Made by a program: the position numbers and the translations under genes
The notes under the pieces: model-generated
Seen by the model: only the letters and a program-made list of their open reading frames with translations
What the model was told of the DNA's origin: nothing
Database searches by the model: none
Origin: a virus
Virus genome (UHGV): UHGV-0098759
Strand: one strand, 5' to 3'
Length of the DNA stretch: 35,139 nt
Part shown: in pieces, positions 1,553 through 34,093 of the stretch
Layout of the letters: every line of letters begins with the position of its first letter
Position numbering within the stretch: the stretch's first letter is position 1

Positions 1553-1592
1553 GCCCCTATCGTTATAATACGCGGTAGGGGCGTTTTTGTTT
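1553..1592 (+). terminator. hairpin plus T-run downstream of the 1119..1538 gene
   Basis: Stem GCCCCTA/TAGGGGC with a large loop containing TTATAAT, followed by GTTTTTGTTT; could alternatively be a recombinase-proximal site. Confidence 0.35.
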
Positions 1593-1601
1593 GGAAATGG
1601 T

Positions 1602-3281
1602 ATGAAAACTAAACTGTATTCGTATATTCGCTTCTCGTCTATGCGTCAGAATGATGGTTCGAGTTATGAACGACAAATCAGGATGGCTAGAGAGATTGCG
1701 GTAAAGTATGACCTTGAACTGGTAAATGATTATCAGGATCTGGGTGTATCTGCGTTTAAGGGTGCTAACTCCAAAACAGGGGCGCTATCTCGTTTCCTTG
1801 ATGCAATAGGTAGATCCGTTCCTGTTGGTAGCTGGCTATTCATCGAAAACTTGGACCGTTTATCCCGTGCCGATATTGTCAGTGCGCAGGAGTTATTCCT
1901 TTCAATCATCCGTAGGGGGATAACCATTGTTACTGGCATGGATAACAAGATCTACTCGCTGGATACTGTTACCGCTAACCCGATGGACCTGATGTTCTCC
2001 ATCCTTTTATTCATCCGTGGTAATGAGGAAAGCCAGACTAAGCGCAATCGTACTAACTCAAGCGCACTGATTAAGATTAAAGCTCATCAAGAAAATCCAC
2101 AAAATCCGGCTGTTGCAATCGAGGAAATTGGAAAGAATATGTGGTGGACTGATACCACATCTGGTTATGTGCTTCCTCATCCGGTCTTCTTCCCTATTGT
2201 TCAGGAAGTTGTGGAATTACGCAGGAATGGACGGTCAACCGCCGAGATACTGGATCACCTTAACGCGACATACACACCACCACCAGCCGCAAGTCACAAG
2301 AGGCATTCAAACTGGTCACGGGCAATGATTGAAAGGTTGTTCCATACCCGCGCTTTGATTGGTATCAAGGAAATCTCTGTAGATGGCGTTAAGTATGAGT
2401 TAAAGGATTATTATCCTCGTGTGCTAGATGACGCTGAGTTTTATCACCTTAAGAAAAGCATTGGTGTTAGAGCATGTAACTTTGGAGACAAAGAAGAAGT
2501 TAAACCTATTCCCTTGCTTAGTGGTGTTGGTCTATTGAAATGTGAACATTGCGGTTCCGCTATGGTTAAGGTGAAAGGAACAAACAGACGGCCTAACCAA
2601 TATCGTTATTCATGCGATGCAATGCGCTCTAGTCGTATTGAATGTGTGCATACAAACTGGAGTTTTCGCGGCGACCAATTAGAGAAAGCTGTATTGCAAT
2701 TGCTGGCTGATAAAATCTGGATTGCTGAAGATAAGGCTAATCCGGTTCCGGCTTTGAAAGTACAGATTGATGAAATATCACGCAAGATTGATAACCTGAT
2801 TACCCTTTCTGCTATGACAGGAGCAACGAAGGAGCTAGCCGATCAGATTACTACCCTCAATAGCGAGCGTGAAACACTCTACAATCAAATTAAGATGGCA
2901 GAAGAGGAAATGTATTCTGTTGACTCTCAAGGCTGGGAGAAGCTCGCAGAATTTGATTTAGAAGATGTTTACAACGAGGATCGCATTAAGGTCCGGTTTA
3001 AGATTAAGCAAGCTCTAAAACGGATCGGGTGTAGCAGGATTGACAAGTACAAAAACTTGTTTGTATTGGAATACATCGATGGCAAGACCCAGAGAGTTGT
3101 AATAGAAAATTCAAGAGGACCGAGGAAAGGCCGGATCTTCATTGATTTGAAGACTATCAATGATAGGCAGATTCTGGAGAGTAACGGGCTTGTTCTGCAT
3201 CCATGTTTAGACATGCTGACAGATAAGAACTGGAAACCAGAAGAAGAAATACCAGGTCCATTACAGGAATTTGGAATTTAA
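1602..3281 (+). CDS. large serine recombinase (integrase-type)
   Basis: N-terminal YIRFSSMRQ matches the serine-recombinase catalytic motif; C-terminal Cys-rich zinc-ribbon (CEHCGS...YRYSC...IECVH) and coiled-coil region; track ORF starts at TTG 1587, first in-frame ATG is 1602. Confidence 0.8.
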   Translation: MKTKLYSYIRFSSMRQNDGSSYERQIRMAREIAVKYDLELVNDYQDLGVSAFKGANSKTGALSRFLDAIGRSVPVGSWLFIENLDRLSRADIVSAQELFLSIIRRGITIVTGMDNKIYSLDTVTANPMDLMFSILLFIRGNEESQTKRNRTNSSALIKIKAHQENPQNPAVAIEEIGKNMWWTDTTSGYVLPHPVFFPIVQEVVELRRNGRSTAEILDHLNATYTPPPAASHKRHSNWSRAMIERLFHTRALIGIKEISVDGVKYELKDYYPRVLDDAEFYHLKKSIGVRACNFGDKEEVKPIPLLSGVGLLKCEHCGSAMVKVKGTNRRPNQYRYSCDAMRSSRIECVHTNWSFRGDQLEKAVLQLLADKIWIAEDKANPVPALKVQIDEISRKIDNLITLSAMTGATKELADQITTLNSERETLYNQIKMAEEEMYSVDSQGWEKLAEFDLEDVYNEDRIKVRFKIKQALKRIGCSRIDKYKNLFVLEYIDGKTQRVVIENSRGPRKGRIFIDLKTINDRQILESNGLVLHPCLDMLTDKNWKPEEEIPGPLQEFGI

Positions 3282-25223: not shown

Positions 25224-27137
25224 TTAAAAGTTATTTACCCACCCACCACGACGCACAGGACGCGCCATAGGACGACGATTAGGTTTGTGATGAGTGATTG
25301 GCTTAGTTTCTTCGATTTGCTCGTTAGAATGTGATTTAGGAGCTTCTACGGTTGCTTCTGGTTCACGATTCAGCTTTTCTTTCATTGCAATGAGCTTATC
25401 CCATGACATTTTTGAAAGAACATAGCGAGAAGCCGCATAGCTATAAACCAGACAGTCGAGCGCCTCGTTTCGTGTCGCACCTGGATTTTTTACCCAACGT
25501 GTTCCAGTAACAGTACGCTTGATGGATTCACTCAAAAGCTGATCGAGATAATCATCAGGAACGGTTTCTGATATCTCTAAACCAATATGAGGGTTTTCTT
25601 TCAAGTTGCGTGTTAATAGCTCACGAATAGCCGTTTTACCCACGTTAACGCCCAACATAAGCAATTCATGACCACCCGTGGTAGTTGGTTTCACCGGAAT
25701 GATTGGAGCAGTACCAGATGAACTACCTTTGATTGCGTGTAAGTTCTTCCACTTACCACCGCAAATACGGTATCCGGCTTGAGTGAATCGACCGTTCGAT
25801 GTATCAAGGAAGCTGGCGAGCATAGGAACACGATCACCCGATACAGTAGTAAATTTGGTTTTATGGAAGTTGATTAATCTGTCCCATACAGGAGATTCAT
25901 ATCGTTCACAGTTATGGTCGTAAAAGCTGCGATGATCCAGAATATAAATCTTATCCTTTGCCACGCCCATGATCGTAGTTTCTGCGCGATCTAATTGCTG
26001 GTCAGTACCCGCACACAAGAAAATCACGTCATCAGGGATATTCTCGATAGAAACATCTGTTTTGAGTTGTTCCAGTTCATTTGCTTCTACTGCCGTGTCC
26101 TGATCGTCGTATACCTTACCTAACACTGTGTTATAAAATGATTGTAAATCAAAGGATTGCCACGCATGACTAAAATCAACCACACAAGCGCGGATACTAC
26201 TGAAAGGTGAATACAGACGGCTGATCCAGAATCCTGCTACTTCACTTTCACGGGTTGCTCTCCACTCGCCTTGCGCTACTGCCCTGATTCGTTCCCCTTC
26301 TGTCCATGATTGCTTACAGTGGGGGCAAATATAACGAGCGGTATCAGGATCGGGTAAGTTCTTACCATCGATGTTACGCCATTCAAATTGAACGTTTTCC
26401 CACTCGATCACCTGGTGTTCCCCGCAATGAGGACACGGAACAAAAAACATACGCATATCACTTGATAACCATTGCTGGTTAATGATTCCCAGCTTATTGG
26501 TTGGGGTACTAGAAACAATCAATCGAGCTTCATCACCAAAGGTAGTTAAACGGTTTGCAGTTAGTGCCACCGGACAACCTTCTTCGGTGATTGTTGCTGC
26601 GTCGCATTCGTCTACAATCCCTAACTTGGCAGTACGCCCACGCAAACTTGAAGGACTGGTCAAAGAAACCATGTAAAGGAAATGGTTTGTTTTTAGCTGA
26701 ATCTGGTTATTGTTGTTTACCGCATTACGATCATTCTTATCTGTTACCACTTCCTGTAATGCCGGACATGCTTCAATAGAAGGACGGATCTTAGTATTCA
26801 AGTACATAGCCACTTCTTTAGCGGTACTTTGCCCGATAATGATATTGCACGGATCGTTTGCCATCTGGTTAAACATGATCCCTGACATGATGGTCGTCTT
26901 TCCGATCTGCGCACTCGTACAAAAAACGTACTTCTTTTTCTTCTCAAGGAAAGGAGCATCAATCATGCCTTTCTGAAATGACAGTAATTTAACTTTATCC
27001 CCAGCACGAGGACCATCGACTAGCGTTAGATTCGCTTCGCACCATTCAGAAGGAAGGAGTTTAGGCGGTGGCGTAATATATTTGGCTGCATTTCTGAGAA
27101 TCTTTTTTAATTTGGCCTTATTAGAAATCAGTTTCAT
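25224..27137 (-). CDS. terminase large subunit, lambda A-like
   Basis: 637 aa; CPHCGEHQ and [14 protein letters not shown] motifs match the corresponding lambda large-terminase segments as recalled; RBS GAGGG. Confidence 0.9.
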
Positions 27138-27225: not shown

Positions 27226-27312
27226 ATGCTAATTAATCAGCAAGAAAGAGATGAATTAGAATTAGCCTTGTCTTGTCTTGTCTTGTCTTGTCTTGTCTTG
27301 TACCGATCATGA
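27226..27312 (+). CDS. 29-codon leader ORF with strong RBS that reads through the (CTTGT)7 repeat and stops at TGA
   Basis: ATG at 27226 preceded by AAGGGGGGG; frame is +1 out of register with the long downstream ORF; the repeat tract lies inside it. Confidence 0.35.
27267..27301 (+). repeat. perfect pentanucleotide tandem repeat (CTTGT)x7
   Basis: Read directly: cttgt repeated seven times from 27267 to 27301, at the 5' end of the 191-aa ORF. Confidence 0.95.
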
Positions 27313-27853
27313 ATATCGTTTGCCAGTAAAACATAAGCACTTAAAGACCGACTACACAACATCTGGCTTTAGTCGTGAGGAAGCTAAACAGATTTTAATC
27401 GAGTTGTATCGTGATAATGGGTATACCGATATTCATAACTTCTTTAAGAAGCATCGCACATCACAGACAGAGTTTCAGCGAGTCCGTGAGTGGTTTGATT
27501 TTGACATTAAGCGATTCTATCGAGTAGATGACGGTCCTATCTATCGGTTGCAGTGGACACCGATCAGGGAAGTGCTTAAACAGAAGAGATTGAATCATGC
27601 CATTACACGCTATCGTAACGTGGCTTTTAAGAAAGACTATGGTGATACAAGAGAACTATTCGTTGAACTCGCTAACGTGAAGTACAGCCACTATTACAAC
27701 GATCCTAAGTCCTTCTTTGAAGTGCTTCGCAAGGTTGATATAAGTCGGGGTACATATTATTCACGGTTGAAGAAGTACGGGATTAAGGTTGAGTTCTTTA
27801 TGTCAGTTGACGATGGAGAACTTTTTCCTATAAAATCTAAGTCCTCTAAATAA
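27278..27853 (+). CDS. tandem-HTH protein with two resolvase-type HTH-like modules; start codon uncertain
   Basis: Track ORF starts at TTG within the repeat; no in-frame ATG for about 175 codons; C-terminal module (GTYYSRLKKYGIKVEFFMSVDDGELFPI) is paralogous to the 86-aa and 60-aa proteins. Confidence 0.5.
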   Translation: MSCLVLSCTDHEYRLPVKHKHLKTDYTTSGFSREEAKQILIELYRDNGYTDIHNFFKKHRTSQTEFQRVREWFDFDIKRFYRVDDGPIYRLQWTPIREVLKQKRLNHAITRYRNVAFKKDYGDTRELFVELANVKYSHYYNDPKSFFEVLRKVDISRGTYYSRLKKYGIKVEFFMSVDDGELFPIKSKSSK

Positions 27854-27882
27854 AGGTGAACATTCACTTTAATTTGGAGAAA

Positions 27883-28116
27883 ATGACTATGACTACTAAA
27901 GCTACTCGCGGTCGTCCTGCCCGTTTTAATCGTGAACAACTGGCATACATTTGCTACGAGTTTTACAAAGCTGGCAAGGGTAAAGAAAGCAGAGAGAAAG
28001 TATTAAACGATCTGGGCATCTCCACCGCCCAGTTTTATAAAAGTATGAAGAAACTTAATGTCGAGTTCTTTATACGTGTAGACGGTGGAGAGGTTGTACC
28101 AATCAACGGAGTTTGA
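27883..28116 (+). CDS. small resolvase-type HTH DNA-binding protein (paralogue)
   Basis: ATG at 27883 with GGAGA RBS; TRGRPARF...GISTAQFYKSMKKLNVEFFIRVDGGEVVPI resembles the resolvase C-terminal HTH; track ORF begins at GTG 27856. Confidence 0.55.
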   Translation: MTMTTKATRGRPARFNREQLAYICYEFYKAGKGKESREKVLNDLGISTAQFYKSMKKLNVEFFIRVDGGEVVPINGV

Positions 28117-28164: not shown

Positions 28165-28194
28165 AAAAGCCCCTGAAATTCAGGGGCAAAAATT
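28165..28194. promoter_or_regulatory. palindrome GCCCCTGAA-A-TTCAGGGGC containing one copy of the TTCAGGGGCAAAAAT iteron
   Basis: Perfect 9-bp inverted repeat whose right arm is identical to the iteron unit of the 30541-30716 array; lies between convergent genes. Confidence 0.5.
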
Positions 28195-28195
28195 A

Positions 28196-29038
28196 TTACA
28201 GTCCGAAGTGTTCCAGTGATCCAGCATTCTGACGAATCAGCAAAGCAGTATTATTGACGATTGCTCGTGAGTTATTCGGCTGTGGCAATTTCAAAGTTGC
28301 GGCCTTTTCTTCTTCAAGCAATCCGAGTTTTACGAGATGCGGGATAGCATCAGCAGTGAACTCGATCTGACCGTGTGCCGACATACGAGCGAACATATAG
28401 CCAGGAGGAAGCAGATCATAGCCTTTAGGCTTACCAGAATCATCCAGACGACGCTCAAGAACACCAGCAGCACATAAACCTTTCAGAATCATTTGTACCT
28501 TCGTAGAGCCTCGTTTTTCGCCTAATAAGCGGCTAAGACTGTGTGTGTCGATAGCTTTACGAACATGCAATTCAACCAGACGTTTGTTTTCGCGGGTTTT
28601 CTCTAATGCCAGTTCGATCCAATCGGTTTCTTCAAAGTGTTCATATGGATTAACCGGAACATTAGCTTTACCTTCTTTCATCAAACGCCATTCTTTAGCA
28701 ATTTTGAAGCGAAGCGGTGCATCGTATCCCATAACCAGAGTATTACAGAGATCTTCATCCAGTTCATACATCGGTTTATTACGATTCAGAGAATCTTTAT
28801 AAGTCGTTTCTTTATAAAAACCGATGGGCGCAAAATTGCGCTCATCTCCTCCGACCAGTTTGCTACCCTTTTCAAGTGAATCAACCATATTACGAAAATC
28901 ACGCATAACATCTTTATGATTCTTTCCGGTTAATTCCGCGATCTGCAAAGTAGACATGGTCAGCGGTTTGGTGTTATCAACAACCAGAGACACGGAAGCA
29001 GGTTTAATAGCAGTATTCATAGTAGTAACAGTATTCAT
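28196..29038 (-). CDS. Rha-family phage regulatory (antirepressor-like) protein
   Basis: N-terminal segment LTMSTLQIAELTGKNHKDVMRDFRNMV matches the conserved Rha N-terminal domain pattern as recalled; RBS AAGGGGG. Confidence 0.65.
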   Translation of the reverse strand: MNTVTTMNTAIKPASVSLVVDNTKPLTMSTLQIAELTGKNHKDVMRDFRNMVDSLEKGSKLVGGDERNFAPIGFYKETTYKDSLNRNKPMYELDEDLCNTLVMGYDAPLRFKIAKEWRLMKEGKANVPVNPYEHFEETDWIELALEKTRENKRLVELHVRKAIDTHSLSRLLGEKRGSTKVQMILKGLCAAGVLERRLDDSGKPKGYDLLPPGYMFARMSAHGQIEFTADAIPHLVKLGLLEEEKAATLKLPQPNNSRAIVNNTALLIRQNAGSLEHFGL

Positions 29039-29127
29039 AGTAAAATCCCCCTTAAACGGTTTAGTGATGATCCTCCTAGTTCCGGCATCACTACCGGAAC
29101 AATTTTATTTATAAAGAAATTTTTATC

Positions 29128-29274
29128 TCATTTAGATTCAGCAATCGCGCGATCAATTTCTTCTTGAATGCGACGCTGGCGTTCATGGAAGTCAACCATT
29201 GAGAAATTCAGGTTTGGGGTCCACGGTTTGCGGTTCGGGTTTTTGCGTCCATCAATTTTCTTAGTAGCGTTCAT
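29128..29274 (-). CDS. possible 48-aa basic small protein
   Basis: ATG at 29274, stop TGA at 29128-29130; below the track cutoff; weak RBS; sits between the promoter and the Rha gene. Confidence 0.25.
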   Translation of the reverse strand: MNATKKIDGRKNPNRKPWTPNLNFSMVDFHERQRRIQEEIDRAIAESK

Positions 29275-29332
29275 AATTAACATTCCATTTACAAATCTAG
29301 GTCAAATAGATTCATAGTTGTCAAGTGCGATA

Positions 29333-29361
29333 ATCATAAAAAAGTTAGAAATTTTTGTCAA
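29333..29361 (-). promoter_or_regulatory. near-consensus sigma70-type promoter on the minus strand (TTGACA-N17-TATGAT)
   Basis: Minus-strand -35 TTGACA (plus 29356-29361) and -10 TATGAT (plus 29333-29338) with a 17-nt spacer, upstream of the Rha gene. Confidence 0.55.
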
Positions 29362-29396
29362 TACCCCTTGACAAGACACCAAAGGGTTGACCTAAC

Positions 29397-29864
29397 TTAC
29401 AGCATATCTAAGCCTTCGTCGTAACCGTAGAAGCCATTCTGAGAAGAAAAACAGATTGGTGCGTAGTCGTCGTCATCTTCGTCTTGTTCATCTTCTTCTG
29501 GGGCTTCCTGAGCGGTTTCTTTACCGTAGTTAAACATTGCTTCATCCAGTTCATAGACAGTAACGAAGCTACCCAGATCAATGTCACCGGAACGGACTTG
29601 AAACGGCAGATCATCACGAACAATAATTGCTGGTAGATTCTGGTACTTTAAGCGTTCTTCATCGGTGAAGACGTTAACAACAATGGTCGGCTTCTTATTA
29701 CGGCAAAACGCATACCATGCACTAGAGAAATGGGATTCATCAGAGTTGAAAAGGATGTTATAACCACGTTCACGGAACATCTTCATTAACTTGTCATTGT
29801 GGAAGCTATCAGAATCCAGACCCAGAAGGATAAAAGGAGTAGTGGTAGTCATTTTATGGTTCAT
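29397..29864 (-). CDS. hypothetical protein with strongly acidic C-terminal tail
   Basis: ORF with GAGGA RBS; C-terminus EAPEEDEQDEDDDDYAP is highly acidic; no domain recognised. Confidence 0.5.
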   Translation of the reverse strand: MNHKMTTTTPFILLGLDSDSFHNDKLMKMFRERGYNILFNSDESHFSSAWYAFCRNKKPTIVVNVFTDEERLKYQNLPAIIVRDDLPFQVRSGDIDLGSFVTVYELDEAMFNYGKETAQEAPEEDEQDEDDDDYAPICFSSQNGFYGYDEGLDML

Positions 29865-29988
29865 AGTGGAAATCCTCTAAAAGAAAGTGAATCAATCTAA
29901 TATTATTTATAAAGAGAAAATTCTTGTTATTATGAAAAGAGTGATCTGGTAGAGTCCAAAACTGGTCTGTACTTGAAAGGTGATTGGA

Positions 29989-30399
29989 TTCAGTCGGGCT
30001 AAAGCCCTCCTTCATAGATTTTGATTAAATCATCACCAAAACGAAGAAGTATCTTTAGAATATAAGAATCTTTCTTTTGAAGAAATAATAATCAGGAAGA
30101 AATTTAGCAACCGAAGGTTGCAATCCCGAAGGGATACCAATACCTTTCTAGAAAGTGATTGTTACTCACTTCGTTCGTTTACTAGAATCAGTTAGTAACT
30201 AGTTTAAAATCCCTTTCAAGAAAATCCTTTCAGAAGTGATTCTCGATGCCACGCAGTGGCGTCGCAGACGTTTGAGAGTGAGCGAAGCGAGCGAGCAAAC
30301 TAGTTAATTCCTTCTAAGACCATCTAGTATCATCTAGTTTAAATTAGTGTTACTAGAAGTAATTGGTTAGCGCTTCGCGCAGTCGGGCTACGCCCTCCT
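29989..30399. repeat. pair of 20-bp direct repeats (CAGTCGGGCTA[A]AGCCCTCCT and CAGTCGGGCTACGCCCTCCT) bracketing about 370 bp of ORF-free sequence
   Basis: Read directly at 29989-30009 and 30380-30399; the interval holds two adjacent GAA-loop hairpins (30106-30136) and short internal repeats (ACTAGTTTAAA, TTACTAGAA). Confidence 0.5.
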
Positions 30400-30540
30400 A
30401 ATATCTTTTTGGTTATTTGTTGTTTTTGGTTTTACACATGAGCGTAGCGAATGTGTTATATAATATCTATGCACGCCCAATTCCCCGTTTTTGCCCTCAC
30501 TAACTTAATGTTTTATAAAGAGTTTTTCTTACCAATCCTT

Positions 30541-30716
30541 TTCGGGGGCAAATTTCAGGGGCAAAAATTAGATTTTCAGGGGCAATTATTGGCATTTCAG
30601 GGGCAAAAATGAGGGGCAAAATCACTGTTTCCCAGAATTTCAGGGGCAAAAATAGTGGGTTTCAGGGGCAAAAATGGGATGTGAAATCTAGGGGATTTTG
30701 GTTCAGGGGCAATTTT
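30541..30716 (+). repeat. iteron array: about 8 direct copies of TTCAGGGGCAA(A/T)(A/T)AT at roughly 21-bp spacing
   Basis: Copies start at about 30541, 30554, 30575, 30596, 30612 (partial), 30639, 30661 and 30702; an inverted partial copy lies near 30485-30498. Confidence 0.8.
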
Positions 30717-30753
30717 CATAGTGTAGGGCTAGTGTAGGTTTGAAAGTCCTTTG

Positions 30754-30782
30754 TTGACACTGTGTAGGAACAGTGGTATAAT
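30754..30782 (+). promoter_or_regulatory. perfect-consensus sigma70 promoter with extended -10 (TTGACA-N17-TGgTATAAT)
   Basis: TTGACA at 30754-30759, 17-nt spacer, TATAAT at 30777-30782 preceded by TGG; directly downstream of the iterons and upstream of an AT-rich tract. Confidence 0.65.
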
Positions 30783-31233
30783 TGACAATTCGAGATAAAT
30801 ATGTTATAATATTTGTATTGAAAGTAAAAATTTACCGATTTTCCTTCCTATTGTTATTATCCTGTTAAATTGTTATATGTCTGTTAAGGTTTGGATCTGA
30901 GAGAAAATCCTGTAACAAATCTTTACAATTCATAGCTCAATTAATACTCACCGCTTTAGCAAAAAGTGCTATGCATTTTTCTAAATTGATTAAATATACA
31001 TCAATTTGGTTAAATCGCGTTCTTCGCTTTAGCAATTCGTGCTGTGGTTTAACACATTTAACACGCCTGATAACATCTGAATAACATTTTAACATATCTC
31101 TGTTATAAATACATATATAAGAGATAAATGTGAGGGGTTGAAAAATTAAAAAACAATCCCCGTATAAATAACAATGAGCGGTTAACGCTCTTTTTTTTAA
31201 GAAATAATTAATCCAGATTTAGGAGGATTCAAG

Positions 31234-31416
31234 ATGGCACGACCTGTTAAGTTCACTCGTGAAATCGTTTTAGAAATGGCAAAGCGTTATTTTGAACTGA
31301 CGCCTGATGTAGTGATTGGTGAATGGTTTAAAGGTGAAGGTATTGATCAATCAACCTTCCACAAACTCTTAAAGAAGTATGACATTAAAGTAAAGATAAC
31401 CGCAGAGGTTTACTGA
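31234..31416 (+). CDS. small resolvase-type HTH DNA-binding protein (paralogue)
   Basis: Strong RBS AGGAGG before ATG 31234; MARPVKFTRE...GIDQSTFHKLLKKYDIKV is paralogous to the 27883..28116 product. Confidence 0.6.
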   Translation: MARPVKFTREIVLEMAKRYFELTPDVVIGEWFKGEGIDQSTFHKLLKKYDIKVKITAEVY

Positions 31417-31455
31417 TACTTTGACTGAGAATTATATGATGGCTTTAAAAATAAA

Positions 31456-31490
31456 AAAGCCCCCTTGCGGCAACAAGGAGGCTTTTGCGA
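31456..31490 (+). terminator. stem-loop (GCCCCCTTG-CGGCAA-CAAGGAGGC) plus T-run after the 60-aa gene
   Basis: 9-bp stem with one mismatch, followed by TTTTGCG. Confidence 0.4.
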
Positions 31491-31528
31491 TGAACAATTA
31501 AAACTAACTTTCCACAGGAGTATTTATA

Positions 31529-32470
31529 ATGTTATTTTCCGCTAACTTTTTCACTAACGAAGTAACCAACGCTAAAGCAGTTATCAAATTTGGCACCGAA
31601 GCAAACAAGAAGATTCAGCCGAAAGTTGTTGCTCATGTTTCCTTTGCGCAGCAGAAATCCGCTTTCGCTGGCTTTAAAGCACATCGTGAAGCACTGATCG
31701 CGGCTGGCTTTGGTGTTGACGGTAAACTGCCTAACGGCATTCGTAAAGCAATCGACCGCGTTAAACCAGCTAAAGACGTTGCAGTAGACCACATCGTTAC
31801 CTTTACCGTTAAGAACTCTTCTGAACTGTTCCACCTGGTTATTGCTGGTGATACTGCTATCGTTTCCGCTCCTAACATGGATTTTCAGGATACCGCTGAT
31901 TGCCAGATCACCTTCGGTCGTCGTAAAGAAGTTACCGGAAAAGCTAAACTGAACTTCACTAAATCCGGCAATCCTTACTTTGCTGTATTCTTTAACAGCC
32001 ACGCTACCGAAAAAGAAGTTGTAGAACTGGTTGCTTATGAAGGTGAAGAGAAAGAACGTATTGAATCTTGCGAAGCATTTCTGGAACTGGAAGCACAGGT
32101 TAATGCTGTTTCTCCTGTTGTAGAAGATCGCTTTGCTGCACTGGAAGCACAGATCGCAGAACTGAAAGCTGCACTGGAAGAAAAAGACCAGATTATCGAA
32201 GCCCAGAAAGCTGAAATTGAAGAACTGAAAGCTAAAGAAGTTGCTCCGGTGGCAGTAGTTGAAAATGCGGCTGATGAGGCCGCAAATGATGAAGTAGAAG
32301 TGAAAATCGATGTGATGCGTGATCCGATGGCTGCACTGCAATTGCTTCGTTCTTTTAAGGGCAAATCTCATTTTTCTAGTGATGCGGTAGACGAGGAAGA
32401 AGAACAGAAACGCAATGCTGCAATGCTTCATGATGAAATGTACGGTACTAACTTTTCTTACTGCCAATAA
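31529..32470 (+). CDS. hypothetical protein with C-terminal coiled coil and acidic tail
   Basis: RBS AGGAG; codon choice visibly differs from neighbouring genes (CGT/CTG/GAA/AAA/GGT-rich); segment AALEAQIAELKAALEEKDQIIEAQKAEIEELKAKE; no domain recognised. Confidence 0.6.
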   Translation: MLFSANFFTNEVTNAKAVIKFGTEANKKIQPKVVAHVSFAQQKSAFAGFKAHREALIAAGFGVDGKLPNGIRKAIDRVKPAKDVAVDHIVTFTVKNSSELFHLVIAGDTAIVSAPNMDFQDTADCQITFGRRKEVTGKAKLNFTKSGNPYFAVFFNSHATEKEVVELVAYEGEEKERIESCEAFLELEAQVNAVSPVVEDRFAALEAQIAELKAALEEKDQIIEAQKAEIEELKAKEVAPVAVVENAADEAANDEVEVKIDVMRDPMAALQLLRSFKGKSHFSSDAVDEEEEQKRNAAMLHDEMYGTNFSYCQ

Positions 32471-33180: not shown

Positions 33181-33735
33181 TTAAGACACATCAAATTCAT
33201 CGTCTTCTTCTGGTTCTTGTTCCGGTTCATCCATTAATGCTAATTCTTCTTCCTCGTCTTCTCCCAAATCTGCATTTTCGAACAAGTCCCCTACTTCATT
33301 TAAACGACGTTCGATGATCTCCCTTAGCTTATTCTTCAATGTTTTCTGATCAGTGGCGGATTCTAAAATTTCTAGGGCATCGATCGTACAAATCTGCAAA
33401 ATAGTCTGTTTCACTTTCCCGCAGTATTCCGCTAGTTCCTGTTCTACATAACCGACAGGAATCAGGAGATTCATTTTTTCCTGGTTCTCTCGTTCGGCTG
33501 CATCTGCCAAAGCACGTTCACGGCGTAATTTCTCTACGTCGATTTGTTCTTTGATAGAAGTTTGTTTAAGCGGGTTGATAATATTTTTCAAGACCCATTC
33601 TGTTCCTTCTTTGGCTGGCACGCGGCGGGTATTGGTGTTAAATGGCAATCCCCTTTCTAACCATCGCTTACCGCCACCATTCAATGTATAGCCATATAAA
33701 CGGGAAATTTCTGTAAGGGTTAATTCTTCTTTCAT
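33181..33735 (-). CDS. putative terminase small subunit (Nu1-like HTH) or HTH DNA-binding protein
   Basis: N-terminal HTH pattern (LTEISRLYGYT...W...GLPF) and GGGK segment resemble the lambda Nu1 N-terminus; coiled middle; very acidic C-terminus; RBS GGAGG. Confidence 0.4.
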   Translation of the reverse strand: MKEELTLTEISRLYGYTLNGGGKRWLERGLPFNTNTRRVPAKEGTEWVLKNIINPLKQTSIKEQIDVEKLRRERALADAAERENQEKMNLLIPVGYVEQELAEYCGKVKQTILQICTIDALEILESATDQKTLKNKLREIIERRLNEVGDLFENADLGEDEEEELALMDEPEQEPEEDDEFDVS

Positions 33736-33854
33736 TGGTTATCCTCCATTAAATTTGCGTAATTTTATTTATTGGTTTTACGCACAATCTAAGCGCCTAA
33801 ATCGCATTCTAACGAAGGGAAAGATCCAGTAATGGTAAGGGTTAGGAAGTGGGT

Positions 33855-33900
33855 TAATAGTCGCGTAGCGACCGCGCCATAAGTGAAGTGATCACGTTTT
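33855..33900. other. GC-rich island with imperfect dyad symmetry (GTCGCGTAGCGAC, GCGACCGCGCC, GTGATCAC) upstream of the terS-like gene; candidate cos or packaging site
   Basis: Local GC-rich symmetric motif in an AT-rich divergent intergenic region; shares GCGACC with the lambda cohesive end as recalled. Confidence 0.2.
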
Positions 33901-34093
33901 AGAATCTCACACGCACATCAAATACCGGGGTGCCGAAAACTCCCTTTATTTCATCCGTGGAACAGTACCTTTTTAATTTGTCAAGCATTAATTTCTTAAT
34001 TTAATTACTAAATCTCATCCCAATAATTGAAAAAATATCAAAAATCAATAAAGTAAGCATCTAAAAGTCAGTCCATACCAAAAGAGGTATAAA

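Follow-up and report, generated by a model that had tools for sequence, protein, structure and literature searches.

A candidate replication origin in the gene-free early control region of an Escherichia coli prophage and its co-variation with p313

The virus genome UHGV-0098759 was analyzed as one stretch of 35,139 nucleotides (nt), which we refer to as the window, with emphasis on the gene-free region between the leftward gene p155 and the small gene p60 and on the product of p313, the first large gene after p60. The central result is that the direct repeats in this region occur as at least four different types in related prophages and that the repeat type agrees in all scorable cases with the type of the N-terminal domain (N-domain) of the protein encoded at the position of p313. 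We interpret the region as a divergent early control region, the core of which (approximately 30236–30716) is most likely a replication origin with coupled regulation and p313 as an initiator-like protein, and we put the probability of this reading at about 0.5. Binding of the protein, unwinding of the DNA, priming and replication are all predicted from sequence comparison. The region is best classed as an iteron-type origin/control region with a non-homologous binding protein.

An earlier note, made from the sequence of the window alone, had described an ORF-free region with an iteron array and had suggested an origin or, alternatively, a multi-site operator. The stretch from 29865 to 31233 (1.37 kb) indeed contains no open reading frame (ORF) of 60 or more amino acids (aa), the longest one comprising 53 aa, and a gene-free stretch of approximately 1.0–1.4 kb between the p155 homolog and a small helix-turn-helix (HTH) gene is kept in all relatives. 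The window itself corresponds to an entire prophage, which interrupts the hicB antitoxin gene of Escherichia coli PI7 and, over the 3.5 kb that were tested, is 100% identical to the chromosome of this strain.

The repeat array and its candidate partner protein p313

The elements that carry the main finding are the following:

30483–30496, minus strand: inverted partial copy of the repeat, 86–92% complementary over 13–14 nt, weakly conserved in relatives
30541–30716, plus strand: type A repeat array, six exact and two degenerate copies of TTCAGGGGCAA with a phase of about 21 bp
30717–30745, plus strand: two copies of (T)AGTGTAGG, the unit of B-type arrays
31529–32470, plus strand: p313, candidate repeat-binding protein of 313 aa

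Exact copies of TTCAGGGGCAA start at positions 30554, 30575, 30596, 30639, 30661 and 30702, and degenerate copies at 30541 (one mismatch) and 30609 (two mismatches), in line with the roughly eight iterons noted earlier. The proposed spacing of two helical turns holds for the exact copies, which are 21, 21, 43, 22 and 41 bp apart, i.e., at multiples of about 21 bp, but not for the degenerate ones, which are offset by 13 bp. When up to two mismatches were allowed, 25 matches to TTCAGGGGCAA were found window-wide compared with 8.0 ± 2.7 in shuffled sequences, and none of 100 shuffles reached 25. The repeats cluster in the control region only. The inverted partial copy that had also been reported is present at the position given above, and a third GTGTAGG occurs at 30762, inside the spacer of the first of two promoters that follow the array. 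The sole exact copy of TTCAGGGGCAA outside the region (28179) lies inside the terminator of the Rha gene. This bidirectional terminator between p86 and Rha (28167–28189, AAGCCCCTGAA-A-TTCAGGGGCAAAAAT) includes the exact 15-nt repeat unit and was considered as a second binding site; this idea was rejected, as the terminator is present in B-type relatives and absent from some A-type relatives. The A-type repeat may have originated from an arm of this hairpin.

Loci of relatives were gathered with a pattern scan for two adjacent repeats and via homologs of p155, of the large terminase and of p313 (homolog P0083). In unrelated organisms, the scan of genome contigs for two adjacent repeats returned single, seemingly chance matches only. 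Across the relatives, the region is a mosaic of exchangeable blocks. The left block (29991 to about 30235) is common to relatives that differ elsewhere, and it is followed by a type-specific block that extends from about 30236 to the end of the array and comprises hairpins, a T-rich tract and the array itself. At least four array types can be distinguished. Type A consists of six to nine copies of TTCAGGGGCAA (with a variant, GAGGGGCAAAAA), type B of six to ten copies of (A)GTGTAGG(T)TT with the core GTGTAGG, type C of 13–18 copies of CGGGGA arranged in two clusters, and type D of about nine copies of CCTCCTAC, a B-like core in reverse-complement orientation. The architecture is kept among the relatives, but the repeat sequence switches between types.

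In 35 of 35 scorable rows, the array type and the N-domain type of the large gene that comes first after p60 agree; no case was discordant. These rows comprise 24 of type A (the window included), ten of type B and one of type C, and some contigs were fetched twice. Arrays of type A are paired with N-domains beginning MLFSANFF..., those of type B with MKNSKRITFN... and that of type C with MKQNNFSITVY... Relative L080 has an N-domain that is 46% identical to that of the window and a repeat with the related core GAGGGGCAAAAA. The p60 allele, although physically located between the array and p313, combines with A and B arrays in each of the four possible ways. Since p60 reassorts freely between the two paired segments, linkage alone does not explain the pairing, whereas selection for matched pairs does. 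The alleles of the genes for the TerS-like protein, Rha, p86, p191 and p155 do not track the array type either. The co-variation of array and N-domain suggests that p313 uses its N-domain to bind the array. The HTH proteins of the phage had been put forward earlier as repeat binders, a proposal that finds no support for p60, the one encoded nearest to the array, whose allele assorts independently of the array type.

The N-domain of p313, about 170 aa long, is basic (pI 9.5), the C-terminal half of the protein is acidic (pI 4.3), and a leucine-zipper-like coiled coil is also present. Coiled coil and acidic half recur in all types of the family, while the N-domains of types A and B are basic (pI 9.5–9.8) and that of type C has a pI close to neutral (7.7). 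In homolog P0090, the N-domain is replaced by a DNA-binding ORF6N domain. Neither Pfam, PHROGs nor the PDB yielded a sequence or fold match for p313, and an NTPase (nucleoside triphosphatase) motif was not found in it. Among 1.8 billion representative proteins, a HMMER search returned only 12 matches, all of them within the same family. Many members of the family end in -AA (YAYAA, RRAA, LKAA, DFAA, RKAA; seen in L055–L077, L060, P0083, P0087 and P0090), resembling ssrA-type ClpX degrons, while p313 of the window ends in FSYCQ.

Mini-hairpin clusters, the T-rich tract and a proposed course of initiation

To the left of the array, small GNA-triloop hairpins (GCGAAGC, GCGTAGC, CCGAAGG) are densely packed on both strands, and a T-rich tract separates them from the repeats:

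29991–30011, plus strand: hairpin motif copy 1, CAGTC-GGGC-loop-GCCC-TCCT (left direct repeat)
30107–30135, plus strand: two adjacent hairpins with C-GAA-G loops (30107–30121 and 30123–30135), each with CCGAAGG
30246–30296, plus strand: hairpins GATGCCAC-GCA-GTGGCGTC and CGTC-GCA-GACG and a GCGAAGC mini-hairpin
30369–30399, GNA loops on the minus strand: two adjacent hairpins, GCGC-GAA-GCGC and GGGC-GTA-GCCC, the second being the right direct repeat
30400–30470, plus strand: T-rich tract (49% T, 27% GC) with the hairpin ACACAT-GAGCGTAGCGA-ATGTGT, candidate unwinding element

Six C-GNA-G hairpins with a stem of at least 4 bp lie within 30107–30395, compared with four in the other 34.8 kb (both strands counted), and four of the 14 GCGNAGC heptamers of the window fall within 167 bp here. 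C-GNA-G and GCGNAGC sequences form very stable DNA mini-hairpins, which, according to a recent review, recur at the replication-initiation/priming sites of phages G4, St-1 and alpha3 and, as CCGAAGG, in ssiA of plasmid RSF1010 (PMC13037366). In the window, CCGAAGG starts at 30111 and again at 30126, in the paired GAA-loop hairpins that the earlier note had pointed out and that belong to the larger cluster. The two direct repeats of about 20 bp are also real, with slightly corrected coordinates (29991–30011 and 30380–30399). They share an exact core of 11 nt, CAGTCGGGCTA, followed after one indel by GCCCTCCT, and both represent one and the same hairpin motif.

Comparison of the relatives reveals that the stems remain paired when their sequences change. 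For copy 1 of the hairpin motif, compensatory changes lead to TGGCTAAAGCCA in L055 and GGCTTCGCC in L054. The hairpins at 30246–30296, which open the DNA module that differs between array types, behave similarly: GATGCCAC-GCA-GTGGCGTC of type A corresponds to GATGTCCC-GTA-GGGACGTC in L080 and to ACGCC-GTA-GGCGT in type B, again with compensatory stem changes. On the right, GGGC-TAC-GCCC has the counterparts GGCC-TAC-GGCC (L080) and CGGC-TAC-GCCG. Variation in the loops is limited to the N of GNA on whichever strand bears it; in L062 and L077, GCA replaces GAA at 30107–30135, and in B-type relatives at about 30370 the TAC/TTC variation on the plus strand equals GTA/GAA on the minus strand. When 29985–30470 was folded as single-stranded DNA, z-scores of −4.1 (plus strand) and −4.7 (minus strand) were obtained. 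In the T-rich tract, L080 keeps the loop core GAGCGTAGCGA, and in B-type relatives the stem is wholly replaced (CTTTCT-TGAACGTAGTGAG-AGAAAG), whereas the loop core, GAACGTAGTGA in these relatives, is retained.

These elements can be combined into a model. Early p313 would bind the phased direct repeats via its basic N-domain and, mediated by its coiled coil, oligomerize into a complex, which, aided by transcription from the two adjoining strong promoters, would open the T-rich tract. The clusters of GNA-loop mini-hairpins on the exposed strands would then serve host enzymes as signals for entry or priming. Judged by strand polarity, i.e., a plus-strand cluster on the left (30107–30293) and a minus-strand cluster on the right (30370–30395), primed strands would grow outward, each away from the other cluster. 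The promoters, the AT-rich leader of 360 nt with its terminator and p60 would form a separate, exchangeable cassette that gates the expression of p313.

If the core is an origin, p313 would constitute a new class of origin-binding protein, the natural swaps between specificities A, B, C and D would represent a ready-made experiment on how p313 reads DNA, and mini-hairpin priming signals, known in single-stranded phages and IncQ plasmids, would extend to a double-stranded temperate phage. Only tentatively do we go further and regard it as a new kind of origin, defined by a binding protein that matches no known fold, at least four interchangeable specificities, back-to-back mini-hairpin signals for host primase, an IncQ-like layout of the leading strands and the lack of a helicase, loader or primase of its own. 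Should the region turn out to be purely regulatory, two segments that are strictly paired although a freely swapped cassette lies between them would still provide clear comparative evidence of a testable protein–DNA partnership.

Flanking modules and the prophage family

The segment between the array and p313 is organized as follows:

30754–30810, plus strand: two overlapping perfect sigma-70 promoters (30754–30782 and 30782–30810), 12/12 matches each, both with an extended −10 TG
30811–31175, plus strand: AT-rich leader with internal repeats, swaps as one module with promoter and p60
31176–31198, plus strand: terminator-like hairpin GAGCGGTTAACGCTC with a T8 run behind it, directly ahead of the ribosome-binding site of p60
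31234–31416, plus strand: p60, small HTH-like protein with paralogs in p86 and in each half of p191, allele independent of array type
31455–31486, no strand: strong bidirectional terminator-like hairpin with a 14-bp stem between p60 and p313

The consensus promoter at 30754–30782 (TTGACA-N17-TATAAT) had been described before; its 12 matching positions and the upstream TG were confirmed, but a second perfect promoter, which overlaps it, had been missed. In relatives, this second promoter is better conserved than the first. The spacer of the first promoter contains a palindrome, CACTGT-N6-ACAGTG, which belongs to the p60 cassette. The AT-rich tract reported upstream of p60 was likewise recovered. 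From 30817 to 31175 the GC content is 29%, compared with about 41% for the window, and the tract ends in the terminator-like hairpin. When treated as RNA, the leader folds better than shuffled sequences (z = −4.57). At least two very different forms of this right cassette (promoter, leader, p60) exist, and a third promoter variant is found in L070. The alternative cassette follows the same logic: the palindrome TTGACAnnTGTCAA encloses the −35 hexamer of its promoter, there are two terminators (one internal, one at the end), p60 is divergent, and the counterpart of the terminator hairpin is AGAGCGAAAAGCTCTTTTT. Both leader types have the motif CTTTAGCAATTCGTGCT in common, for which no antisense target was found in the phage. 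From this anatomy, the right cassette appears to act early as a switch controlling p313, and a terminated leader RNA may be part of it. Over 26 nt (30950–30975), the leader is identical to Veterinaerplatzvirus T145P1, a match of borderline significance (E = 7e-3). This stretch includes the leader motif CGCTTTAGCAAAAAGTGCT, a second copy of which is found at 31025; both leader cassette types retain the motif. The small HTH-like domain of p60 is present in four copies in the phage, namely in p60, p86 and both halves of p191 (27278–27853, 27856–28116 and 31234–31416), all following the pattern ..S..TFY..LKKY.IKVEFF..VDDGE..PI; it is an unclassified DNA-binding module.

On the left, the hairpins and the type-specific block are accompanied by these features:

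29397–29864, minus strand: p155, first gene of the leftward early operon, alpha/beta domain with a conserved acidic tail, DDDDYAPIcFSS..GLDML
29865–29990, minus strand: upstream region of p155 with a Shine-Dalgarno site, an AT-rich stretch and weak promoter-like sites
30012–30100, plus strand: promoter-like cassette (..CCAAAACGAAGAAGTATCTTTAGAAT..), resembles an intergenic element of T4-like Krischvirus phages, inverted in L055
30136–30245, no strand: CTAG-rich segment with repeated CCTTTC-AGAAGTGATT motifs, common to A-type and B-type relatives
30297–30368, no strand: second CTAG-rich segment, four CTAG in 72 nt, with AAACTAGTTA inverted relative to 30196–30205

The structural model of p155 displays a generic three-layer alpha/beta domain without a P-loop. 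A Toprim-like DxD motif was considered for this protein and dropped because it is not conserved. All p155 homologs, a family confined to E. coli and Shigella, keep the acidic tail DDDDYAPIcFSS..GFYGYDEGLDML, reminiscent of the C-terminal tip DDDIPF of SSB. Upstream of p155, a 41-nt insertion (29937–29977) is present only in the window, L060 and L070. It is formed by a unit similar to the small, roughly 20-nt hairpin units (e.g., GAGTCCAAATCTGGACT and GATGCCCTCAAAACTGAGGGGATG) that occur in zero to about eight copies between p86 and Rha in relatives (seen in L059, L061, L067, L070, L073 and L076) and that resemble miniature mobile or expandable hairpin repeats.

The promoter-like cassette at 30012–30100 has a TAGAAT hexamer and no acceptable sigma-70 −35 hexamer. 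Positions 30011–30097 are about 77–80% identical to an unannotated intergenic element of Krischvirus (RB49/JSE-like) that occurs in about four copies per genome. In phage JSE, the matching copy (EU863408.1, 65487–65568; 1501–1582 of locus L039) immediately precedes gene 3, and, as in the window, two small hairpins come after it. Identification of this element as a T4-type PeSL cassette was rejected, as the definition by a consensus sigma-70 promoter and a stem-loop with G/C tracts does not apply (PMC2839356). In near and distant DNA searches of the phage collection, this 80-nt likeness and the 26-nt match to Veterinaerplatzvirus were the only matches, and no phage with the core, the array, the promoters or the leader was found. 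A search of the plasmid collection yielded no match.

Elsewhere, the window encodes a set of genes typical of a phage, among them:

1587–3281: large serine recombinase (integrase)
3810–27137, minus strand: genes for tail, head, portal and large terminase of the lambda GpA type

An endolysin-like protein (PHROGs/Pfam annotation), a Rha-family protein and several small genes lacking a family assignment complete the picture. The large terminase was assigned to the lambda GpA type by PHROGs and by the Pfam domains GpA_ATPase and GpA_nuclease. No replication gene was recognized among the proteins of the window that were tested against PHROGs and Pfam, and the same holds for a CI-type repressor and for a partition protein or NTPase. 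A tRNA scan of the window was negative. Related prophages are present in 63 of 5426 complete E. coli genomes (about 1%), and the phage collection contained no close isolate, the best match for the large terminase being 43% identical. The prophage family is so far unstudied, and its early genes are without recognized function.

RefSeq lists the large terminase gene of strain PI7 as a frameshifted pseudogene (NZ_CP074033.1, 778252–780278). In the window, the ORF is intact (25224–27137, minus strand; 637 aa), and residues 5–636 align to the terminase family profile. A Nu1-like candidate for the small terminase, p184 (33181–33735, minus strand), is encoded 6 kb from the large terminase, beyond the control region; the 358 bp upstream of p184 (33736–34093), in which a GTCGCGTAGCGAC hairpin is found, are a possible location of the cos site. 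A possible cos end at the terminus of a 36-kb Logan contig was discarded, as the contig runs into the attachment region there. E. coli UTME-9 (NZ_CP157110.1) harbors an A-type and a B-type member of the family together, at 2806354 and 3413984, and E. coli BS74R-D (NZ_CP063332.1) has two matches to the A-type N-domain, the second of which was not located. Co-resident prophages were looked at as a test of immunity in these few genomes only. One copy in BS74R-D is inserted in ycdX instead of hicB, and the family therefore has at least two attachment sites.

Weighing of the readings and comparison with known systems

Several arguments speak for a replication origin in the core of the region. The phage must have an origin, and nothing else in the prophage resembles one. 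Phased repeats, a T-rich tract, strand-specific hairpins of the priming type and a partner gene fit an iteron origin, and the array resides in a different exchange unit from the cassette of promoter, operator and HTH gene. A number of observations weigh against it. No DnaA box was found in the region (no match to TTATCCACA with up to one mismatch), nor was the IHF consensus WATCAANNNNTTR or a cluster of GATC sites, and p313 exhibits no known Rep fold and no homology to known Rep or O families. Genes for a helicase, a loader or a primase are not recognizable in the phage; every step after binding would therefore have to rely on recruited host proteins. Furthermore, the T-rich tract is less AT-rich in B-type relatives, the covariation in the stems is equally compatible with hairpins acting as DNA or as RNA, and an acidic half with a leucine zipper, together with the relative bearing ORF6N, would also suit a transcription factor. 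Repressors and operators co-vary in temperate phages as well. The earlier alternative of origin or operator has turned out to be the right pair of hypotheses, and the comparison of relatives in addition supports a specific partnership of array and p313.

The second member of this pair, purely transcriptional control, would make p313 a repressor, an anti-repressor-like factor or an autoregulator on a multi-site operator, the array types would reflect immunity or regulatory specificities, and the origin would be located elsewhere or be unrelated. We consider this the main rival, if less probable than an origin, since the array is situated directly upstream of two perfect promoters driving p313's own operon, DNA-binding proteins typically co-vary with their sites in phage immunity regions, too, coiled coil and acidic half of p313 resemble those of many activators, and ORF6N, as found in its homolog, is common in antirepressor-like regulators. 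The lack of DnaA and IHF sites agrees with such a role, and in a phage with no recognizable CI-like repressor some other protein must serve. However, the promoters already match the consensus and need no activator, and the array does not overlap them. The last repeat is 42 bp from the −35 hexamer in the window but about 200 bp from it where the other cassette type is present. This speaks for an origin, because the position of a classical operator would be expected not to vary. The immunity-like cassette, made up of the promoter, p60 and palindromes that, like TTGACAnnTGTCAA, cover the −35 hexamer, swaps independently of the array, and an operator role is not obvious for 8 to 18 phased repeats, a T-rich flank and strand-specific mini-hairpins of the DNA type. 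It is improbable, although less so than the two readings discussed last, that the left half (29990–30470) represents one or more structured non-coding RNAs and the leader (30790–31198) an abundant terminated regulatory RNA comparable to RNA-based immunity or attenuation. The folding of the leader, its terminator just before p60 and the second strong terminator ahead of p313, the internal repeats with the motif CTTTAGCAATTCGTGCT in both leader types and the compensatory changes in the hairpin stems would agree with this, as would the promoter-like cassette upstream of the plus-strand hairpins, the Krischvirus counterpart of which precedes a gene with two hairpins in between. Yet no Rfam family reached the gathering threshold over 29000–32000, the best matches being far below, the leader motif lacks an antisense target in the phage, the left half is not followed by a terminator, and the promoter-like cassette has a poor −35 region and is reversed in L055. 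C-G-closed GNA triloops are a hallmark of stable DNA mini-hairpins (PMC13037366), and a single transcript cannot explain why one cluster keeps GNA on the plus strand whereas the other keeps it on the minus strand. The small structured RNA suggested by the earlier note is weakened on the same grounds. An RNA function of the leader can, nevertheless, coexist with the origin model.

Two further explanations carry very little weight. Direct-repeat arrays upstream of an operon occur in plasmid partition loci, and lambda-type small terminases bind repeated sites. With a terminase of the lambda GpA type encoded in the window, the array might be a packaging recognition site (cosB- or pac-like) for the small terminase, or else a partition centromere. 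We deem both very unlikely, as p184 does not track the array (89–99% identity to the window in B-type and 89–94% in A-type relatives), the array is 2.5 kb away from the p184 gene and 3.4 kb from terL, and the phage integrates by a serine recombinase and encodes no partition NTPase. It is just as hard to uphold the remnant of an inserted element suggested earlier, with the direct repeats as target-site duplication. Two similar 20-nt sequences do flank about 370 bp, and small hairpin units vary in number elsewhere in the phage family, but no relative has an empty site bounded by the repeats, and the only deletion found (L007, lacking 29926–30153) has other end points. Each repeat is a copy of the hairpin motif with its own compensatory stem variation, the two copies vary independently, the right one is replaced by different hairpins in B-type relatives, and A-type relatives differ hardly at all in the bracketed segment, which is less variable among them than the flanking genes.

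Returning to the replication origin as the favored reading, we compared the region with known systems. As in iteron origins, phased direct repeats are present, AT-rich tracts flank them on both sides (27% GC on the left, 29% on the right), and an adjacent gene appears to be matched in specificity, judged by co-variation in 35 of 35 rows; homology to known Rep or O proteins, DnaA boxes and IHF sites set these origins apart from the region studied here. A parallel in layout is oriλ of phage lambda, where phased direct repeats likewise lie beside an AT-rich tract. Lambda O resembles p313 in its size of about 300 aa, in a type-specific N-terminal half that matches the repeats and in a C-terminal half that is more widely shared. 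The lambda origin is activated by a nearby strong early promoter, similar to the strong early promoters that adjoin the array, and lambda depends on host replication enzymes, as would the phage studied here. In contrast to lambda, the repeats are located in non-coding DNA upstream of the gene instead of inside it, O and p313 share neither sequence nor fold similarity, and a counterpart of the P helicase loader is not recognizable. In the origins of staphylococcal pathogenicity islands (SaPIs), which have island-specific Rep proteins, repeats flank an AT-rich tract, match an adjacent initiator and are swapped as specificity types among relatives; the SaPI Rep protein is a helicase accompanied by a primase, whereas p313 lacks an NTPase motif and a known fold.

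Phage immunity regions share with our region the joint exchange of a DNA-binding protein and its sites as well as strong early promoters in opposite directions, and differ in that the array lies off the promoters with up to 18 direct copies and in that palindrome and small HTH gene form a separate, independently assorting cassette. Lambda cosB, with sites matched and adjacent to the small terminase gene, and parC-like loci, in which an array is combined with a centromere-binding protein and an NTPase, have no equivalent here, the latter for want of an NTPase partner. The oriV of the IncQ plasmid RSF1010 comprises an origin bound by the initiator RepC and two single-strand initiation hairpins, ssiA and ssiB, on opposite strands (PMC8567376). 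Homologs of RepA helicase, RepB' primase and RepC are missing among the tested proteins of the window, host primase would be needed, and the hairpins are many and short instead of two near-identical ssi hairpins of 40 nt forming a long inverted pair. The two systems nevertheless resemble each other in having hairpin signals on complementary strands, and the CCGAAGG heptamer of ssiA is present twice in the window. The signals of G4, St-1 and alpha3, located at the primase start site (PMC13037366), are complementary-strand origins of single-stranded DNA phages, whereas the phage described here is a double-stranded temperate one with a putative role of its hairpins in priming; what both have in common is the clustering of stable GCGNAGC and C-GNA-G DNA mini-hairpins.

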